A stretch of DNA of 43,357 nt from Nitrososphaeraceae archaeon (GCA_035639375.1 DASQYF010000008.1:1-43357), one strand, 5' to 3'. Positions 1 to 8,369 are shown, numbered from the stretch's first letter. The notes: generated by a model not told the origin, from the sequence alone. Made by a program: numbers and translations.

Positions 1-1
1 A

Positions 2-1585
2 GGAAAGACAATAAGAGATGGGTTAGCGCAAGCTTCTGGTGTCACAAATGCAGATGGTGCTCTTGATTATGTAATTACAAATGCGGTTATCATGGATCCG
101 GTGCTAGGAATAGTTAAAGCTGACATTGGAATAAAGGATGGGAAAATAGCTGGAGTTGGAAAATCAGGCAACCCATATGTAATGGATAAAGTAAATACAA
201 AGATGATTGTTTCAGCATGCACTGAAGCTACAGCTGGCGAACACACTATATGTACCGCAGGACACTTTGATACACACGTTCACAATATATGCCCACAACA
301 GTACATAGATGCCATCAGCAATGGTATCTGCAACATGATAGGAGGAGGAACTGGTCCAGCAGATGGAACATGTGCAACGACCTGTACACCTGGAGTCTTT
401 AATATGAGCAGAATGTTGGAAGCGATCGAAGATACACCTATGAACTGGGGATTTTTAGGAAAGGGGAATGATTCTCATCCATCATTAGCAACCCAAATGG
501 AGCAGATAGAAGCAGGAGCATGCGGCCTCAAAGATCATGAAGACTGGGGAACAACTAATGCAGTATTAGATGCTTCTCTAAAAGCAGTAGACGCTACTGA
601 TACACAGCTAGCCATTCATACAGATTCAATAAATGAATGCGCCTACGTAGAAGATACTATAAATGCTATTGATGGTAGAACATTGCATACATATCACACA
701 GAAGGCGCAGGTGGTGGTCATGCACCAGATATTATGAAGATTGCTGGAGAACAATTCGCTCTGCCATCTTCAACCAATCCAACCAGACCATACACTGTAA
801 ATACAGTAGATGAGCATCTTGACATGTTGATGTTCTGTCATCATCTTAACCCTGCAGTTCCGGAGGATGTCGCATTTGCAGAGTCAAGGATAAGAGCTGA
901 AACTATTGCTGGAGAAGACGTTTTACATGATGAAGGAGTGATAAGTATGTATTCATCGGACAGTCAAGCAATGGGCAGAATAGGCGAGGTAGTAATACGC
1001 GCATGGCAGACTGCAGACAAAATGAAGAAGATGAAGGGAAGATACAAAGAGGAGACAGGCGATAACGATAATTTCAGAGCAAAAAGATACATTGCAAAGA
1101 CAACAATTAATCCTGCAATAACACACGGTGTTTCAGACTATCTAGGATCTCTTGAAGTAGGTAAATATGCAGATATAGTTATGTATCCAATGGCATTCTT
1201 CCCTGCAAAGCCTAAGATGGTATTTAAAGGAGGATTCATAGCATGGTCAATCATGGGAGATCCAAATGCATCTCTTCCAACTCCAGAGCCAGTCTACTAT
1301 AGACCAATGTTTGGAGCATTAGGAAGGGCAGTAAAGAACACATCATTCACTTTTATGGCAAAGAAAGCCATAGAATTAGGAGTCCCCGAGAAATTAGGAT
1401 TGGAAAAAGTGATTCTCCCTGTTAAGAATTGCAGAAGTATTGGCAAACAAGATATGATGTGGAACGACAAGACTCCTGAGATAACAATAGATCCAGAGAC
1501 ATATGAAGTAAAATTAGACGGACAAATTGCAACCGTAGATCCTGCAAAGGAACTCTCATCAGCACAAAGGTACTTTATGGCATAG
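2..1585 (+). CDS. ureC: Urease alpha (catalytic) subunit, 5'-truncated by the window edge
   Basis: The frame is open from nt 2 ([13 protein letters not shown]... precedes the first Met at 92), so the gene starts upstream. Urease alpha hallmarks are visible: [14 protein letters not shown] (HxH Ni ligands), GLKDHEDWG (carbamyl-Lys context), [42 protein letters not shown]. Confidence 0.97.
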
Positions 1586-1658
1586 CAGTTTAACAACCGG
1601 AGTAGTAGTAGTAATAATAGCAAACAACGGCCACAGCATCAACTATGGCTGGAAAATT

Positions 1659-1680
1659 CTTTTATTTTTTTATTCTTTTT
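1659..1680 (+). terminator. Oligo-T tract downstream of ureC (candidate archaeal intrinsic terminator)
   Basis: The run ttcttttatttttttattcttttt lies about 75 nt after the ureC stop. Archaeal RNAP terminates at T-runs. No experimental support. Confidence 0.3.
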
Positions 1681-1696
1681 GATATATCTTTATTTT
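1681..1696 (+). promoter_or_regulatory. TATA-like element upstream of the thermosome-paralogue gene
   Basis: gatatatctttatttt is centred about 34 nt upstream of the ATG at 1722. The spacing fits an archaeal TATA box with a very short 5' UTR. Confidence 0.3.
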
Positions 1697-1721
1697 GATC
1701 TGTATCAGAGAATAATGTCTA

Positions 1722-3278
1722 ATGTCAAATCCTAATTATGGTGTGTGGAGGCCTATGGCTGAGAACATTGAGTTCAATGCATTAGAGTCCAATTCCAATG
1801 CAGTGATGACTGTGGCGGACACTGTAAGAACTACCCTAGGACCTAAGGGATTAGATAAGCTACTAATAGATCAAGCTATGAATAGACATGTTTCAAATGA
1901 CGGTGTAACAATCTTGCTCTCCCTAAGGGCTATACATCCAGTTGCAAGAATGATTGTAGAAATAGCTGAAAGACAAGAGCAATTAGTTGGTGATGGAACT
2001 ACAACTGCAGTAGTAATGGCAGCTGAAATGATAAAGGAAGGCAAGAGACTCATCAAGGAACTAGGTGTTCATCCAACAAAAGTTGTAGAAGGTATAGAGA
2101 GTGGAGTCAATCATGCATGTCAGCTTTTGGAAAAAGAGGCCAATAAGATTACGCTAAATGACATTGAATTAGAACAGATAATCAAGACATCTCTATCATC
2201 AAAGCTCGACGGAGAAAAACTCTCTTCATTAGTAATTGCAGCACTGAGGTCCGTAGGAAAAAATGCAATGTATAATGGCTCCTATAATTTTGATAAGGCG
2301 ATCATGGTTATTAGAAGAACCAATATGGAGGATAGGACCATCAATGGCATAGTCCTAGAAAGAAAAAGAATGGATCCCGAGATGCCTTTAGAAATAAAAG
2401 AATCAAGGATCCTGATTGCGAAATTAGATTTAAAACCTGTTAAAGAATCTTGGCTTAAAGACAACAGTAAATATGAAGAAATACTTAGCATGGAAAATGA
2501 TAGGGTTATCAAATCAAAAGAAATAGTAGATGCCATGCTAGCAACTAGTGCAAATACCATCTTGATTGCGTCACCTGAAGTAGATCAGGTTATAGAGGAT
2601 CTTCTTGTAGCAAGAAAGGTATTTGCCGTCCGTATATCTACAGAAGAAATTGAATATCTGTCGCGATATACTGGAGCTAAGGCTATAAGAACGATTGAAG
2701 ATCTAAAAAAAACAGATATTTTAGGTAAAGCAGGTCATATATATGAAGATGAAGATAATGGGGTAATATACATAGAGAATGGTTTGGGTAGAAATATGGT
2801 TACAATGATTGTATCTGGTACAACTAAAGAGACATCTCTTGAGCGATGGAGGGCTGCTATAGATGGCGTAAATGCTGCCGAAGCGGCTCTGAATAAAGGA
2901 GTTGTTGCCGGCGGAGGCTCTGCAGAATTGCATGTCATAGAGAAAGTAAATAATTTGAGATTGAAGGGTCTTGAACAAGTTGGCCTAGAGGTTGTCACTT
3001 CAGCTTTAGAAAGCATTATGCGTCAAATACTAACAAATGCAGGCTATAATGGATTAGAAAAGGTTATGGCAGCAAAAGCATCGCCTAGTGGTTTTGGTAT
3101 TGATATTGATTCAGGCGAAGTAGTAGATATGTGGAAAAAGGGTGTGCTTGATCCTTTATTGGTTAAGACGATGGCTCTTCAGGCTGCAGGAGAGATATCT
3201 AAATCTGTTTTAAGAATAGATAAAAACCTGGCAGCAGAAGATCTGAGTCATCAGGCAGTATCAGAGGTAAAAAGGTGA
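1722..3278 (+). CDS. Group II chaperonin (thermosome/CCT family), divergent short paralogue
   Basis: 518 aa. Motifs present: [29 protein letters not shown] (ATP site), [19 protein letters not shown]. Overall architecture matches a thermosome, including the apical insertion region. It lacks the usual Gly/Met-rich C-terminal tail. Confidence 0.9.
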
Positions 3279-3290
3279 TTAGATACAATA

Positions 3291-3671
3291 ATGTTGATTC
3301 GTCATTGTGTTGAGGAGTCTAATGTTGACGAGAACTTGATCGTAATTGATCCAGCGAAAATAAGACATGGAGTCATTGCGGCAGGTAAACTTCAATCGAT
3401 GTCTGGACTCATTGATCCTGCTTCACATCTTAATCTTGATTACCCAGATCATAAGATTACAAATTGCATCATTGTTGAAAAATTTGAAAATGGCGCTAAG
3501 GTTAGATTAGGAGATCGAGGGCTTGTTTTTGCGTTCGTTGACAGATCGTCCTTTGATCATTTTGGTTTCGTTGATTATACTCAAAGATTGTCAGATATGA
3601 TTAAGAGAGTAAAAAGGATTCGTCGATCGAGATCGACAATTAAAAGAACTAGGAAAAAGGATAGAAATTGA
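3291..3671 (+). CDS. Hypothetical protein with Arg/Lys-rich C-terminal tail
   Basis: 126-aa ORF starting 12 nt after the chaperonin stop. Its TGA overlaps the TTG start of ureE (ATTGA). Tail sequence is KRVKRIRRSRSTIKRTRKKDRN. The segment IIVEKFENGAKVRLGDRGLVFAFVDRSS weakly resembles an S1/OB-fold strand pattern. No confident family. Confidence 0.55.
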   Translation: MLIRHCVEESNVDENLIVIDPAKIRHGVIAAGKLQSMSGLIDPASHLNLDYPDHKITNCIIVEKFENGAKVRLGDRGLVFAFVDRSSFDHFGFVDYTQRLSDMIKRVKRIRRSRSTIKRTRKKDRN

Positions 3672-4183
3672 TAACTATTAATTCGGTAATTGGAAATATA
3701 AACAAGAATACCAGTCTTAACGAAAAATATATGGAGATGTCTCATAAGAAAGTTTGTGAAGTAATTAAAATCAGCAGATTAGAGTCACAGAGAGTTAGGA
3801 TGAGAAAGACATCTAATAAAGGAACTGATATTGCTCTGATCCTTCCACAGGGAACACAACTAAGACATGGCGATGTTATTATGATAACAGAAGAGAAGAT
3901 GGTAATAGTGGAAATGGAACCAGAGAATGTGGCGGTGATCGAGATTAAAGATGACATCCGCAACCACGATATCATTGACGTACCAGTAAAAGTTGGTCAT
4001 ACAATAGGAAACCTACATCGTCCTCTAAAATTAGAGGGAAATAAAATTTACTTTCCAATTCAAGCCGATAGTGAATTGGAAATATTCAGGAAGCTTTTTG
4101 CACCAATAGCCGAACATCTAAAAATTAATAACACAAATATGGTCTTTGAACCTGAAGAGGGCACGGAAATACATGAGCATTGA
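3668..4183 (+). CDS. ureE: Urease accessory protein UreE (Ni metallochaperone)
   Basis: GHTIGNLHRPLKLEGNKIYF matches the UreE 'LGNRHxPxQ' core. Position is between ureC and ureF. Only a minimal His motif at the C-terminus (..EIHEH). The start is uncertain: TTG at 3668 or ATG at 3731. Confidence 0.85.
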   Translation: MITINSVIGNINKNTSLNEKYMEMSHKKVCEVIKISRLESQRVRMRKTSNKGTDIALILPQGTQLRHGDVIMITEEKMVIVEMEPENVAVIEIKDDIRNHDIIDVPVKVGHTIGNLHRPLKLEGNKIYFPIQADSELEIFRKLFAPIAEHLKINNTNMVFEPEEGTEIHEH

Positions 4184-4877
4184 CAAGATGGACATGCAAG
4201 AAATAAGTATACTACAGCTTTCTGATTCTTTTTTTCCAACCGGTATGTATACTACTTCAAACGGTCTTGAAACGTTATTTTATAGCAAGAAGATAAATAA
4301 TGCAAATGAATTGCGTGATCTGATAAAGGTATATGTAGAGCACCAAATTGGTCCGGCAGATTGTACTGCCCTAGGAAATGCCTATGAATGTGCTGATAAA
4401 TCAGATTTATCTAAATTGTTAAAAGTAGATCAAATAATATATGCAATGAAACTTGTTAAAGAAATAAGAGACGCTTCTACTAGATCAGGCACCCAGCTTT
4501 TAAGATGCTTAACTTCATTCATAACAGATAATGAATTAATGAATCAATATCAACAGGCAATAAAACAAGGACAAGCTGCAGGAGTATATTCTACTGTAAT
4601 GGCAGTTGCAAGTAACGCTTTAAAGATACCAAAGCAAAAAGCTGCTATTATGATGCTTTACACTTTTTCAGTAAGCATAGTTGGAGCAGCCTTAAGATTA
4701 GGGATGTTACAGCATTTTGAAGGCCAGAGAATCATTCATGAATTAAAACCTACTATTTTGAATACCATGATAAACAACATTGATAGACCGTTAATAAGTA
4801 TGTGGCAGTTTGCTCCAGAAATAGATATTATTCAGATTTCACATGAAAAATTGGATTCAAAAATGTTTATTACTTGA
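4173..4877 (+). CDS. ureF: Urease accessory protein UreF
   Basis: LQLSDSFFPTGMYTTSNGLE is the typical UreF N-terminal motif. I prefer the ATG at 4173, which overlaps the ureE end by 11 nt, over the TTG at 4146 used by the ORF track. Confidence 0.88.
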   Translation: MSIDKMDMQEISILQLSDSFFPTGMYTTSNGLETLFYSKKINNANELRDLIKVYVEHQIGPADCTALGNAYECADKSDLSKLLKVDQIIYAMKLVKEIRDASTRSGTQLLRCLTSFITDNELMNQYQQAIKQGQAAGVYSTVMAVASNALKIPKQKAAIMMLYTFSVSIVGAALRLGMLQHFEGQRIIHELKPTILNTMINNIDRPLISMWQFAPEIDIIQISHEKLDSKMFIT

Positions 4878-4895
4878 TCGCACAGTACTTTTTGC

Positions 4896-5549
4896 ATGAG
4901 TGCTAAACGAATTCCTAGAGTAGGAATTGGAGGTCCTGTTGGTTCAGGAAAGACCATGCTTATAGAGCAAGTCGTTCCTATACTTTCATCTAGAGGTTAT
5001 AGGGCAGGTATAATTTCAAATGATGTAGTCTCTCGAGAGGATGCAGATAGAATGAGACAAAATTTAGCAACACAAAAGGGCTTGATGGCAGAAGATTTAG
5101 TAATCGGATTAGCAACAGGAGGATGTCCTCATACAGCTATACGTGAAGATCCATCAATGAATATATCAGTGGTAGAGGAAATGGAAGAAAAAAATAATTA
5201 TCTCGATTTGATTATAATTGAAAGTGGAGGAGACAATATTACAACCACATTTAGCCCTGCACTAGCTGATTATTTTATCTATATCATAGATGTCTCTGGC
5301 GGCGATAAATATCCAAGAAAAAGGGGCCTCGGCATAGAAAGCTGCGACCTCCTGGTAATAAATAAGATTGATATTGCACCTCATGTTGGCGCAGATCTTG
5401 GGATCATGGAAAGAGATGCTAAAGACGTAAGGGGAATAAAGCCTTATGTCTTTGTGAACTGTAAAACAGGTCAAGGAGTCAAAGAAGTAACAGAGCACAT
5501 AATAAGAGATGTTCTCTTTGAGTCTCCTCCAAAGGCTATTGCAAAATGA
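4896..5549 (+). CDS. ureG: Urease accessory GTPase UreG
   Basis: P-loop GIGGPVGSGKT, metal-binding GGCPHTAIRED, ESGGDN, and NKIDI (NKxD). Confidence 0.97.
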   Translation: MSAKRIPRVGIGGPVGSGKTMLIEQVVPILSSRGYRAGIISNDVVSREDADRMRQNLATQKGLMAEDLVIGLATGGCPHTAIREDPSMNISVVEEMEEKNNYLDLIIIESGGDNITTTFSPALADYFIYIIDVSGGDKYPRKRGLGIESCDLLVINKIDIAPHVGADLGIMERDAKDVRGIKPYVFVNCKTGQGVKEVTEHIIRDVLFESPPKAIAK

Positions 5550-5576
5550 CAAGGTCGTCGTCGTAATAATACATTA

Positions 5577-6506
5577 ATGAACAATTTAGAATTTTATGTT
5601 CCGGTAGATATACCACCGGAAGTATTAGTATACGAATCAAAATTAAAACAACTTGAAGTAGGAAAAGCAGGAAAACTAGGCGCCTTGGTATTACGATTAG
5701 AGAAAGATCCGGAAGTAGGAAAAACCGTTGTCAAAGAACAATATTCAAAGGTCCCTCTGTTCACCCAGAGAGCACTATACCTTGAAGAGTCCATACCTTC
5801 GATGGCATACATTTACATAATATCTCCTTCAGGAGGCATTCTTCAGGGAGATAGATACAGGATGGATATAAAATTGAAGAATAACGCATATGCCCATATA
5901 ACAACACAAGGCGCAACAAGAGTTTATAGAATGGAAAATAATTATGCCACACAGATAGTGAATGTTGATGTAGATGATGGCTGTTATTTTGAATTTATTC
6001 CCGACCAAATAATTCCTTATAGGAACTCTCGTTTTTACCAGACGGTTAACTTGAATGTTCATGATAATGCAACCATGGTCTATTCTGAAATCATAGTACC
6101 AGGCAGGGTGGCCACTGGAGAATCATTTGAATATGATATTTGTTATATGAAAGCTTTGGCAAAGAATCAAAAGGAGATATTAAGATTCATAGATATTGCA
6201 ATATTAGAACCTAAGAAACGCAACTTGAAAACACTTGGAATACTTGGCACTTTCAGTGTTGTTGGAACAATGTACATACTTACAATGGCAAAATATGTGG
6301 CAGAATTAAATGAAGCGATAAATTCGAGTATGCAGAAGTTTTTCAAGATTTCAGGAGGAGCGACAATCCTTCCTTATAATTCTGGCATCATAGTAAGAAT
6401 GCTTGGTAGTGTGGCTGCCGATCTTAGAACTGCTATCTATGAAGTAATTAAAATTATAAGAAAGATTATACTTAATGCCTCCTTTACCGGAGTAAGAAAG
6501 GGCTAG
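5577..6506 (+). CDS. ureD: Urease accessory protein UreD/UreH
   Basis: 309 aa. The PSGGILQGDRY motif and the last position in the ure accessory block fit UreD. Confidence 0.85.
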   Translation: MNNLEFYVPVDIPPEVLVYESKLKQLEVGKAGKLGALVLRLEKDPEVGKTVVKEQYSKVPLFTQRALYLEESIPSMAYIYIISPSGGILQGDRYRMDIKLKNNAYAHITTQGATRVYRMENNYATQIVNVDVDDGCYFEFIPDQIIPYRNSRFYQTVNLNVHDNATMVYSEIIVPGRVATGESFEYDICYMKALAKNQKEILRFIDIAILEPKKRNLKTLGILGTFSVVGTMYILTMAKYVAELNEAINSSMQKFFKISGGATILPYNSGIIVRMLGSVAADLRTAIYEVIKIIRKIILNASFTGVRKG

Positions 6507-6545: not shown

Positions 6546-6752
6546 TCATCGTCTGCCAGTAATCCAGAATTCTGTTACTTTTATTTTGTGTCCCATATGA
6601 TCGCGATGCATATTGGCAGTCCATAATACATCAAATACTTCATTACAATCTTCACACCAGGCAGTGAAGTTTTTTCTATGTTTGTCAAATGCGTTCATAG
6701 TTTGTTTGTTATAACGAAATTTCATATAAAAGCTTGCACTCAAACAGAGCAA
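6546..6752 (-). CDS. Small C2H2-type zinc-finger-like protein (start uncertain)
   Basis: WCEDCNEVFDVLWTANMHRDHMGH gives C-x2-C-x12-H-x3-H spacing. The track start at 6752 is TTG. In-frame ATGs at 6725 and 6698 would give 59- or 50-aa products. Convergent with ureD. Confidence 0.4.
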   Translation of the reverse strand: MLCLSASFYMKFRYNKQTMNAFDKHRKNFTAWCEDCNEVFDVLWTANMHRDHMGHKIKVTEFWITGRR

Positions 6753-8030: not shown

Positions 8031-8369
8031 ATGCAAAGCTCAATAACATGTTCTCTATGTAATAGCCAAGATCAGACGGTCACAGATCCTGAATCGGGCG
8101 AGATAATTTGTAGAAGCTGTGGTCATGTGATATCAGAGAAAGCTTTAGAAACACAGGCAGAATGGCGTGCTTTTACTACTGATGAAGTAAATGATAGAAG
8201 TAGAACAGGAATGCCTACCTCTCTAGCTAGACATGATAAAGGACTTGCAACAATAATTGGAAGAGCAAATAAGGATGCTAGCGGACAAGTTTTAGATGCA
8301 GCTATGCGTACTACCATGGAAAGATTAAGGACATGGGACTTTAGAAGGACATACTCTGATTACAAATAA
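8031..8369 (+). CDS. Transcription factor B paralogue truncated to its N-terminal domain (Zn-ribbon + B-reader/linker), lacking cyclin-fold core
   Basis: CSLC-x16-CRSC zinc ribbon, then AEWRAF, RSRTGMPTSLARHDKGLATIIG, and RLRTWDFR. The stop follows at residue 112, where the first cyclin repeat of a full-length (about 300 aa) TFB would begin. Confidence 0.8.
   Translation: MQSSITCSLCNSQDQTVTDPESGEIICRSCGHVISEKALETQAEWRAFTTDEVNDRSRTGMPTSLARHDKGLATIIGRANKDASGQVLDAAMRTTMERLRTWDFRRTYSDYK

Follow-up and report, generated by a model that had tools for sequence, protein, structure and literature searches.

A thermosome-like chaperonin gene and a small histidine-rich open reading frame in the urease locus of a soil Nitrososphaeraceae archaeon: candidates for urease maturation

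The window analyzed here is the whole 43,357-nt stretch DASQYF010000008.1:1-43357 (GCA_035639375.1), a contig from a soil metagenome-assembled genome (MAG) of a Nitrososphaeraceae archaeon. Positions 1 to 6506 carry one closely spaced block on a single strand, in the order ureC, a spacer, a chaperonin gene (cpn), a small unannotated gene (orf126), ureE, ureF, ureG and ureD (Table 1). The first 8.3 kb of the window are 98.8% identical to a second contig (L001, GCA_036741675.1 contig DAINRV010000005.1), in which the locus is complete: urea transporter, 196-aa hypothetical protein, ureA, ureB, ureC, cpn, orf126, ureE, ureF, ureG and ureD. The UreE, UreF, UreG and UreD families were all found by Pfam and NCBIfam searches, and their genes are co-directional and adjoin ureABC in the full locus. 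An earlier sequence-only reading of the window had arrived at the same map; its coordinates and gene order were reproduced, and its ure gene identities agree with the Pfam and NCBIfam results. By sequence comparison, cpn belongs to a distinct, horizontally mobile thermosome-like lineage that moves with one type of ure cluster and with orf126. A chaperonin dedicated to urease is the best explanation of these data, and we consider it fairly probable.

The basic linkage of a chaperonin gene to archaeal urease genes has been known since 2018, which answers the question whether it had been described before. Abby et al. (2018; Front Microbiol 9:28, PMC5797428) reported that the Nitrososphaerales and Nitrosocaldus cavascurensis encode an Hsp60 homolog within their urease loci. 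It is distinct from the conserved thermosome and absent in Nitrosopumilales; it perhaps came from bacteria in one block together with the urease genes and likely stabilises urease. The same paper cites the contribution of the Helicobacter pylori chaperonin to urease as a precedent, and on this point the sequence-only proposal of a maturation layer that is not present in the bacterial urease paradigm is not supported. By sequence, the window cpn is the ortholog of this urease-locus Hsp60 homolog (arCOG01257 subfamily). It has the same family, the same position between ureC and ureE and the same taxonomic group, is likewise distinct from the thermosome, and shares the proposed role in stabilising urease; there is no essential difference, and the window adds one more member from a soil Nitrososphaeraceae MAG. 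The available portions of the paper do not name orf126, do not list copies from Scalindua or Methanomassiliicoccales, and do not place the protein relative to Group II or Group III chaperonins. In the searchable literature we did not find the occurrence of this clade, with shuffled gene order, in anammox bacteria and Methanomassiliicoccales-related archaea. The separation of the clade from both Group II and Group III and the co-travelling His-rich orf126 were not found there either.

The genomic context of cpn and its relatives was mapped by tblastn in a sample of loci (600 pattern matches examined, 80 loci kept); the taxonomic labels of MAG contigs in this sample may be wrong. The order ureABC-cpn-orf126-ureEFGD is present in 16/16 Nitrososphaeria genome loci (Nitrososphaera, Nitrosocosmicus, family-level MAGs and Nitrosocaldus) and in about 62 of the 63 assessable metagenome loci, and because the order recurs so regularly the arrangement is not a matter of chance. 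The closest relatives outside Nitrososphaeria are on bacterial contigs labeled Scalinduaceae, Brocadiaceae and Neomarinimicrobiota; exact-sequence look-ups of the bacterial copies returned mostly Ca. Scalindua species. The order in this Scalindua type is ureABC-orf126-ureEFGD-cpn in all 15 contigs that reach beyond ureD (among them a 3.1-Mb bacterial contig and 10/10 sufficiently long metagenome contigs). Two bacterial-type loci (L095, 1079-3847, and L096, 2840-5608) carry a 2.7-kb insertion between orf126 and ureE. A third arrangement is found in a MAG labeled 'Methanobacteriota BL5', where ureABC-orf126-ureEFGD is convergent with cpn and adjoins urea and ammonium transporter genes. In the human-gut methanogen Ca. 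Methanomassiliicoccus intestinalis (L027, 8713-11461), cpn (AGN27054) divergently adjoins a urea transporter gene (AGN27055). The genome also has a ureA-G operon (AGN27148-54; Borrel et al., 2014), which is about 93 genes away from cpn. Every member of the urease-linked clade that was examined adjoins either ure genes or a urea transporter gene in a urease-positive genome, and none of the approximately 60 thermosome loci and the Group III loci that were mapped has ure neighbors. The mapped loci show co-occurrence of the clade with urease in each lineage examined. Two proteins with 86% identity to the window cpn (P0030 and P0058) carry the NCBI label 'Nitrosopumilales archaeon', which is probably loose MAG taxonomy. 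As judged from these sequences, the urease-linked chaperonin has probably spread by horizontal transfer along with the urease cluster.

A number of observations weigh against a chaperonin dedicated to urease. The ureases of Nitrosopumilales have no such chaperonin according to Abby et al. (PMC5797428), and urease of this general type can thus mature without it. The window UreC appears to be an ordinary urease alpha subunit by sequence (about 740 bits to solved bacterial ureases). No ure genes are present within 10 kb of AGN27054 in M. intestinalis, and, the genome survey having been capped, strict co-occurrence of cpn and urease is not proven. One contig of the ammonia-oxidizing archaea (AOA) type (L157, 2523-2652) carries ureC, the promoter-like ATATACCTTTATTTTT, orf126 and ureE, with no cpn open reading frame (ORF) in between. 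Its spacer retains GTGTCAA, which resembles the cpn start ATGTCAAAT, and cpn seems to have been cleanly lost there through a natural deletion, so that some lineages may be able to do without the chaperonin. The position of the clade relative to Groups II and III also pulls in two directions, the neighbor-joining (NJ) tree placing it on the Group II side and profile scores slightly favoring Group III. In addition, the searchable literature contains no test of the chaperonin function or client.

Some of these observations would also suit a chaperone of general or stress-related use, hitch-hiking on a mobile urease island with no special tie to urease and kept as help for the new genes or for the host proteome. 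The generic chaperonin fold and motifs, the natural variant without cpn, the chaperonin-free Nitrosopumilales ureases and the distance of about 93 genes in M. intestinalis are all in line with it. Against this explanation, the linkage to ure or urea-transport genes is retained over at least four gene orders in bacteria and archaea while the other neighbors change, and within the surveyed sample no clade member was found apart from urea genes. Some hosts also already own a housekeeping chaperonin: cpn is an extra chaperonin gene in the Nitrososphaera contig L009, which carries the canonical thermosome gene as well. It is not the only thermosome gene there; had it been the sole one in the genome, this would have told against the proposal of the sequence-only reading, by that reading's own terms. 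We regard the hitch-hiking explanation as rather unlikely. It is also conceivable that the client is some other component of urea use, for example a urea transporter or a regulatory complex that needs help in assembly, since cpn divergently adjoins a UT-type urea transporter gene in BL5 and M. intestinalis. In the AOA-type and bacterial-type loci, however, the nearest neighbors are ureC, orf126 or ureD and not a transporter gene, and to our knowledge cytosolic chaperonins do not fold polytopic membrane proteins, which counts against a transporter client; we give this explanation very little credence. A chaperonin dedicated to urease itself is in agreement with the intact motifs, the conserved promoter-like element, the co-occurrence with urease and the status of cpn as an extra chaperonin, all of which fit a client-dedicated role.

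An NJ tree was constructed from 150 sequences (502 columns, 200 bootstraps, E. coli GroEL as root). The urease-linked copies, bacterial ones and those of two euryarchaeal lineages included, form one clade of 16 sequences (bootstrap 100), with an AOA subclade at bootstrap 100. The canonical thermosome clade (108 sequences, bootstrap 96) excludes the urease-linked copies and contains the Nitrososphaera thermosome encoded on L009. The urease-linked clade also falls outside Group III (25 sequences, bootstrap 66) and is joined to the thermosomes at bootstrap 82; the Group III hidden Markov model (HMM) beats the thermosome HMM by 20 to 40 bits for the archaeal urease-linked copies. The window cpn shows 73 to 87% identity to its counterparts at the urease loci of Nitrososphaera, Nitrosocosmicus and Nitrosocaldus, 43 to 46% to the chaperonins in Scalindua-type bacterial urease clusters and 29% to the Nitrososphaera thermosome. 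In a search of 1.84 billion representative proteins, the Nitrososphaeraceae copies made up one 50% cluster, followed by two outliers at 43% and 38% identity and then by bacterial proteins at 34 to 37% (Thermoactinomyces, Peptococcaceae and a Firmicutes MAG); ordinary thermosomes were lower. The genes of the Thermoactinomyces and Firmicutes MAG relatives are found in hrcA-cpn-grpE-dnaK-dnaJ operons, a Group III context. The top PDB sequence match is 9RWQ with 286 bits, compared to about 225 bits for Mm-cpn and thermosomes. 9RWQ is ACIII, a resurrected Group III ancestor, and 9RWP is ACII (PMC12696368); the PDB molecule name of 9RWQ reads 'Ancestral Group II Chaperonin (ACII)', in conflict with that paper. 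Taken by sequence, the urease-linked cpn appears to be a third thermosome-like lineage, apart from the canonical thermosomes and from the dnaK-operon Group III.

The sequence-only reading had called cpn a divergent thermosome paralog. A recent, fast-evolving paralog of the Nitrososphaeria thermosome, recruited into the operon within the lineage, would agree with the best NCBIfam models being thermosome subunits, with the Group II-like lid region and sensing-loop Lys, and with the NJ placement nearer to thermosomes than to Group III. It is difficult to reconcile with 29% identity to the Nitrososphaera thermosome versus 43 to 46% to the bacterial urease-linked copies, with the bootstrap of 96 for a thermosome clade that holds the Nitrososphaera copy and leaves cpn out, and with Group II and III HMM scores that are about equal while the top PDB match is a Group III ancestor. 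The paralog origin is largely refuted and, in our estimation, highly improbable. A strict Group III assignment was also considered and rejected, as it fails on the operon context and on the sensing-loop Lys. Another rejected candidate is P0244, a high-scoring 1057-aa tandem chaperonin from a Freyarchaeota contig, which is encoded among corrinoid-methyltransferase genes with no ure genes. On that contig (L171, 3366-11174), the tandem-fused double chaperonin and a 568-aa chaperonin are found amid MtrH, corrinoid-protein, RACo and DsrE genes, a further case of chaperonin genes set in a metabolic cluster and unrelated to urease.

Like Group II chaperonins (thermosome and Mm-cpn), the window cpn has a fold of three domains, the ATP-site motifs with the catalytic Asp, and a Lys in the sensing loop; a helical protrusion is present in the model, in the least confident part of its core. 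The window cpn differs from Group II in its 29 to 36% identity, in a shorter sensing loop and the lack of the N-terminal LKEGT strand and the C-terminal Gly/Met (GGM) tail, in scores below the NCBIfam cut-offs and in being encoded beside the maturation genes of a metabolic enzyme. With Group III chaperonins (Carboxydothermus Ch-CPN, PDB 5X9U/5X9V; ACIII, 9RWQ), it shares a length of about 515 aa, the missing GGM tail and the missing N-terminal strand; some hosts of the urease-linked clade are bacteria, as in Group III, and the highest scores of cpn are to this group. Unlike Group III genes in hrcA-cpn-grpE-dnaK-dnaJ operons, the window cpn is in an archaeal ure operon, and the aligned Group III sequences have a deletion at the sensing-loop Lys that the urease-linked clade keeps.

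Alignment of cpn shows the GDGTTT, NDG and VAGGG/GGG motifs, the catalytic Asp (D381) and the sensing-loop Lys (SSKLDG). D381 and the other catalytic motifs are invariant within the urease-linked clade, whereas the N-terminal strand, part of the nucleotide-sensing loop and the GGM tail are missing; retention of the ATPase motifs and loss of the Gly/Met-rich tail had both been read correctly from the sequence at the outset. The best NCBIfam matches are thermosome models (TIGR02339, 292 bits versus a cut-off of 671; NF041082, 291 bits versus 450). An AlphaFold2 (AF2) model of cpn has a pLDDT of 88.6 and a pTM of 0.84. Its TM scores are 0.85 to closed Mm-cpn, 0.86 to T. acidophilum thermosome beta and 0.83 to the closed Group III structure 5X9V. 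The lid region has approximately the thermosome length (a 5-aa deletion and a small insert), and the protrusion is modeled as helices 242-246 and 251-274, where the pLDDT is the lowest of the core (63 to 79). From the alignment, cpn is an intact and apparently ATP-competent chaperonin, and together with the fold model it is probably active. A decaying, non-functional relic, as might be suspected from the sub-threshold NCBIfam scores, the missing strand and tail and the deletion in one lineage, is extremely unlikely given more than 4,000 relatives in the databases with an intact ORF, the identity of 73 to 87% across Nitrososphaeria, the invariance of all catalytic motifs and the confident fold model.

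In the spacer between ureC and cpn, an imperfect hairpin (1630-1649) is followed by T-tracts (about 1660-1682) and then by ATATCTTTATTTT (1684-1696), a BRE/TATA-like element about 25 nt before the cpn ATG. In the alignment of 14 Nitrososphaeria loci, ATAYCTTTATYTTT is present in 13 of the spacers, about 25 to 35 nt before the ATG and preceded by oligo-T runs; otherwise the spacers have 45% mean identity. Within the window this element has a single exact match, the one in the ureC-cpn spacer. The T-tract and TATA-like element proposed from the window sequence are thus present, and the latter is kept in related loci. A sigma-70 promoter scan was uninformative (32 sites versus 31 expected), the host being an archaeon, and conservation of the spacer across loci was used instead. 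The oligo-T tracts could terminate a ureABC transcript, and the element fits a BRE/TATA promoter of the archaeal kind, from which the cpn mRNA would start with no leader or almost none. The gaps downstream of cpn are 27 nt or less throughout the block, and a GGTGA Shine-Dalgarno-like motif is located 12 nt before the orf126 start; both fit co-transcription of cpn-orf126-ureEFGD, and the conserved TATA-like element supports a separate transcript for these genes. In a variant AOA locus (L151, 4480-14293), one strand carries cpn-orf126-ureEFGD, with ureCBA lying downstream in convergent orientation. Since the cpn-led block is split from ureCBA in this variant, it must have its own promoter there; the sequence upstream of the L151 cpn is without the usual ATAYCTTTAT element. 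According to a 2026 preprint on N. viennensis, the urease genes and 'an archaeal thermosome' go up together under DMPP stress; the locus tag of the thermosome is absent from it, and the result was not counted as evidence.

The databases contain 742 to 958 homologs of orf126, every one of them named 'hypothetical'. Across the AOA, bacterial and BL5 copies (37 to 48% identity), R4, H5, N11, D20, H26, G39, D42, P43, H46, L47, N48, D50, H54, H90, G92, V94, D95 and R99 are invariant, including five His residues (H5, H26, H46, H54 and H90). Only the AOA copies have the basic C-terminal tail, and the two Cys are not universal. An AF2 model (pLDDT 77.5) consists of a beta-rich domain and a C-terminal helix. 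No Pfam or NCBIfam match was found at any listed threshold, no PDB match by profile search and no structural neighbor of the model in the PDB by Foldseek (best E-value 2.4). Comparison with UreE by hhalign gave a probability of 0.5%, and a profile search of a large protein set listed only close AOA relatives and no distant hosts. An Rfam search of L170 gave no match. The gene is located between ureC and ureE in AOA, in bacteria and in the BL5 archaeon, wherever cpn sits, and by this fixed position the link of orf126 to the urease genes is no looser than that of cpn. By its sequence conservation, orf126 is a real, unannotated family and may be a new accessory protein of urease. Its place next to ureE, together with the five invariant His, suggests a role in metal handling.

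We propose that cpn, orf126, ureE, ureF, ureG and ureD are probably transcribed as one leaderless mRNA, from an archaeal promoter inside the locus, in the ureC-cpn spacer. The chaperonin would probably assemble as a lidded, ATP-driven ring complex, and this complex would probably fold or hold a urease component until nickel is inserted by UreDFG and UreE. Its client may be UreC, a TIM-barrel subunit of 61 kDa, or else UreD or the UreDFG complex, which are prone to aggregate. The orf126 protein would probably belong to this pathway too, either handling metal together with UreE or serving as an adaptor. The H. pylori GroES/GroEL system (HspA/HspB) has in common with the window system that a chaperonin is implicated in nickel-urease stability or activity, and interaction work on it has reportedly been done (PMC6370633). 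HspA/HspB is the housekeeping Group I chaperonin, encoded outside the ure cluster, and is no dedicated paralog. A broader proposal is put forward tentatively, as something possible that we would not yet call probable: cpn and orf126 may form a two-protein extension of urease maturation that moves horizontally with one ure-cluster type among AOA, marine anammox bacteria (Scalindua-type) and Methanomassiliicoccales-related archaea. In this proposal cpn would be a third thermosome-like lineage specialized on a single nickel enzyme, and orf126 a nickel partner of UreE or an adaptor of the chaperonin.

Table 1. Features of the urease block in the window (positions counted from the first nucleotide of the window)
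Feature	Start	End	Strand	Evidence and remarks
ureC, urease alpha subunit	1	1585	+	NCBIfam urease subunit alpha, 794 bits; 5' end off the window edge
ureC-cpn spacer	1586	1721	+	136 nt; hairpin, oligo-T tracts, BRE/TATA-like element
cpn, urease-locus chaperonin, thermosome-like Cpn60/TCP-1	1722	3278	+	518 aa; Pfam PF00118, 342 bits
orf126, small unannotated protein	3291	3671	+	Conserved homologs; begins 12 nt after cpn
ureE	3668	4183	+	TTG start; Pfam UreE_N and UreE_C; NCBIfam UreE
ureF	4173	4877	+	Pfam UreF, 125 bits; start ambiguous
ureG, Ni-insertion GTPase	4896	5549	+	NCBIfam TIGR00101, 235 bits, over its cut-off; 18-nt gap before
ureD, final gene of the block	5577	6506	+	Pfam UreD, 161 bits; 27-nt gap before

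An open ureC frame runs from base 2, the left edge of the window cutting off about 45 codons (full length 575 aa in L001). With its TTG start, ureE shares 4 nt (TTGA) with the end of orf126, stop codon included. Some gene callers pick the ATG at 3737; the long form is favored, as the NCBIfam UreE profile aligns from residue 1 and tblastn matches elsewhere span the full length. The ureF start could be TTG 4146, ATG 4173 or ATG 4188 (the choice of the gene callers, with a 4-nt gap). The 11-nt overlap of ureE and ureF described at first is obtained with ATG 4173, and the ambiguous start leaves it as one of three options.

A 68-aa ORF with Cys/His motifs is located at 6546-6752 on the minus strand, convergent with ureD, and is also called in L001-L004; its match to a zinc-binding domain from phage is weak (E 7e-4, below cut-off). 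The identity of the window to L001 stops at about 8346, with no relation beyond. The breakpoint is inside a TFB (TFIIB) gene (8031-8369), of which the window ORF retains the first 105 of 301 codons; the remaining codons were found nowhere in the window. Either an insertion or a rearrangement took place here, or the break is a joint made in assembly. The 196-aa hypothetical protein of L001 (3058-3648), encoded between the UT urea transporter gene and ureA, shows 37 to 82% identity among Nitrososphaeraceae loci; it gave no tblastn match in the Nitrosocaldus locus L020 and no Pfam match.

Anammox bacteria and the nitrifiers of soil and sea draw much of their nitrogen and energy from urea, and urease activation is the textbook case of nickel-enzyme maturation. 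To the linkage already known, the present analysis adds a wider distribution, a corrected evolutionary placement and the lead provided by orf126. If cpn and orf126 are maturation factors, the UreDEFG paradigm would fall short for a large share of the ureases in the environment, and heterologous expression of archaeal urease would probably require both proteins. The urease-linked clade would then be a clean natural case of a single-client thermosome-like chaperonin passed between domains together with its client.

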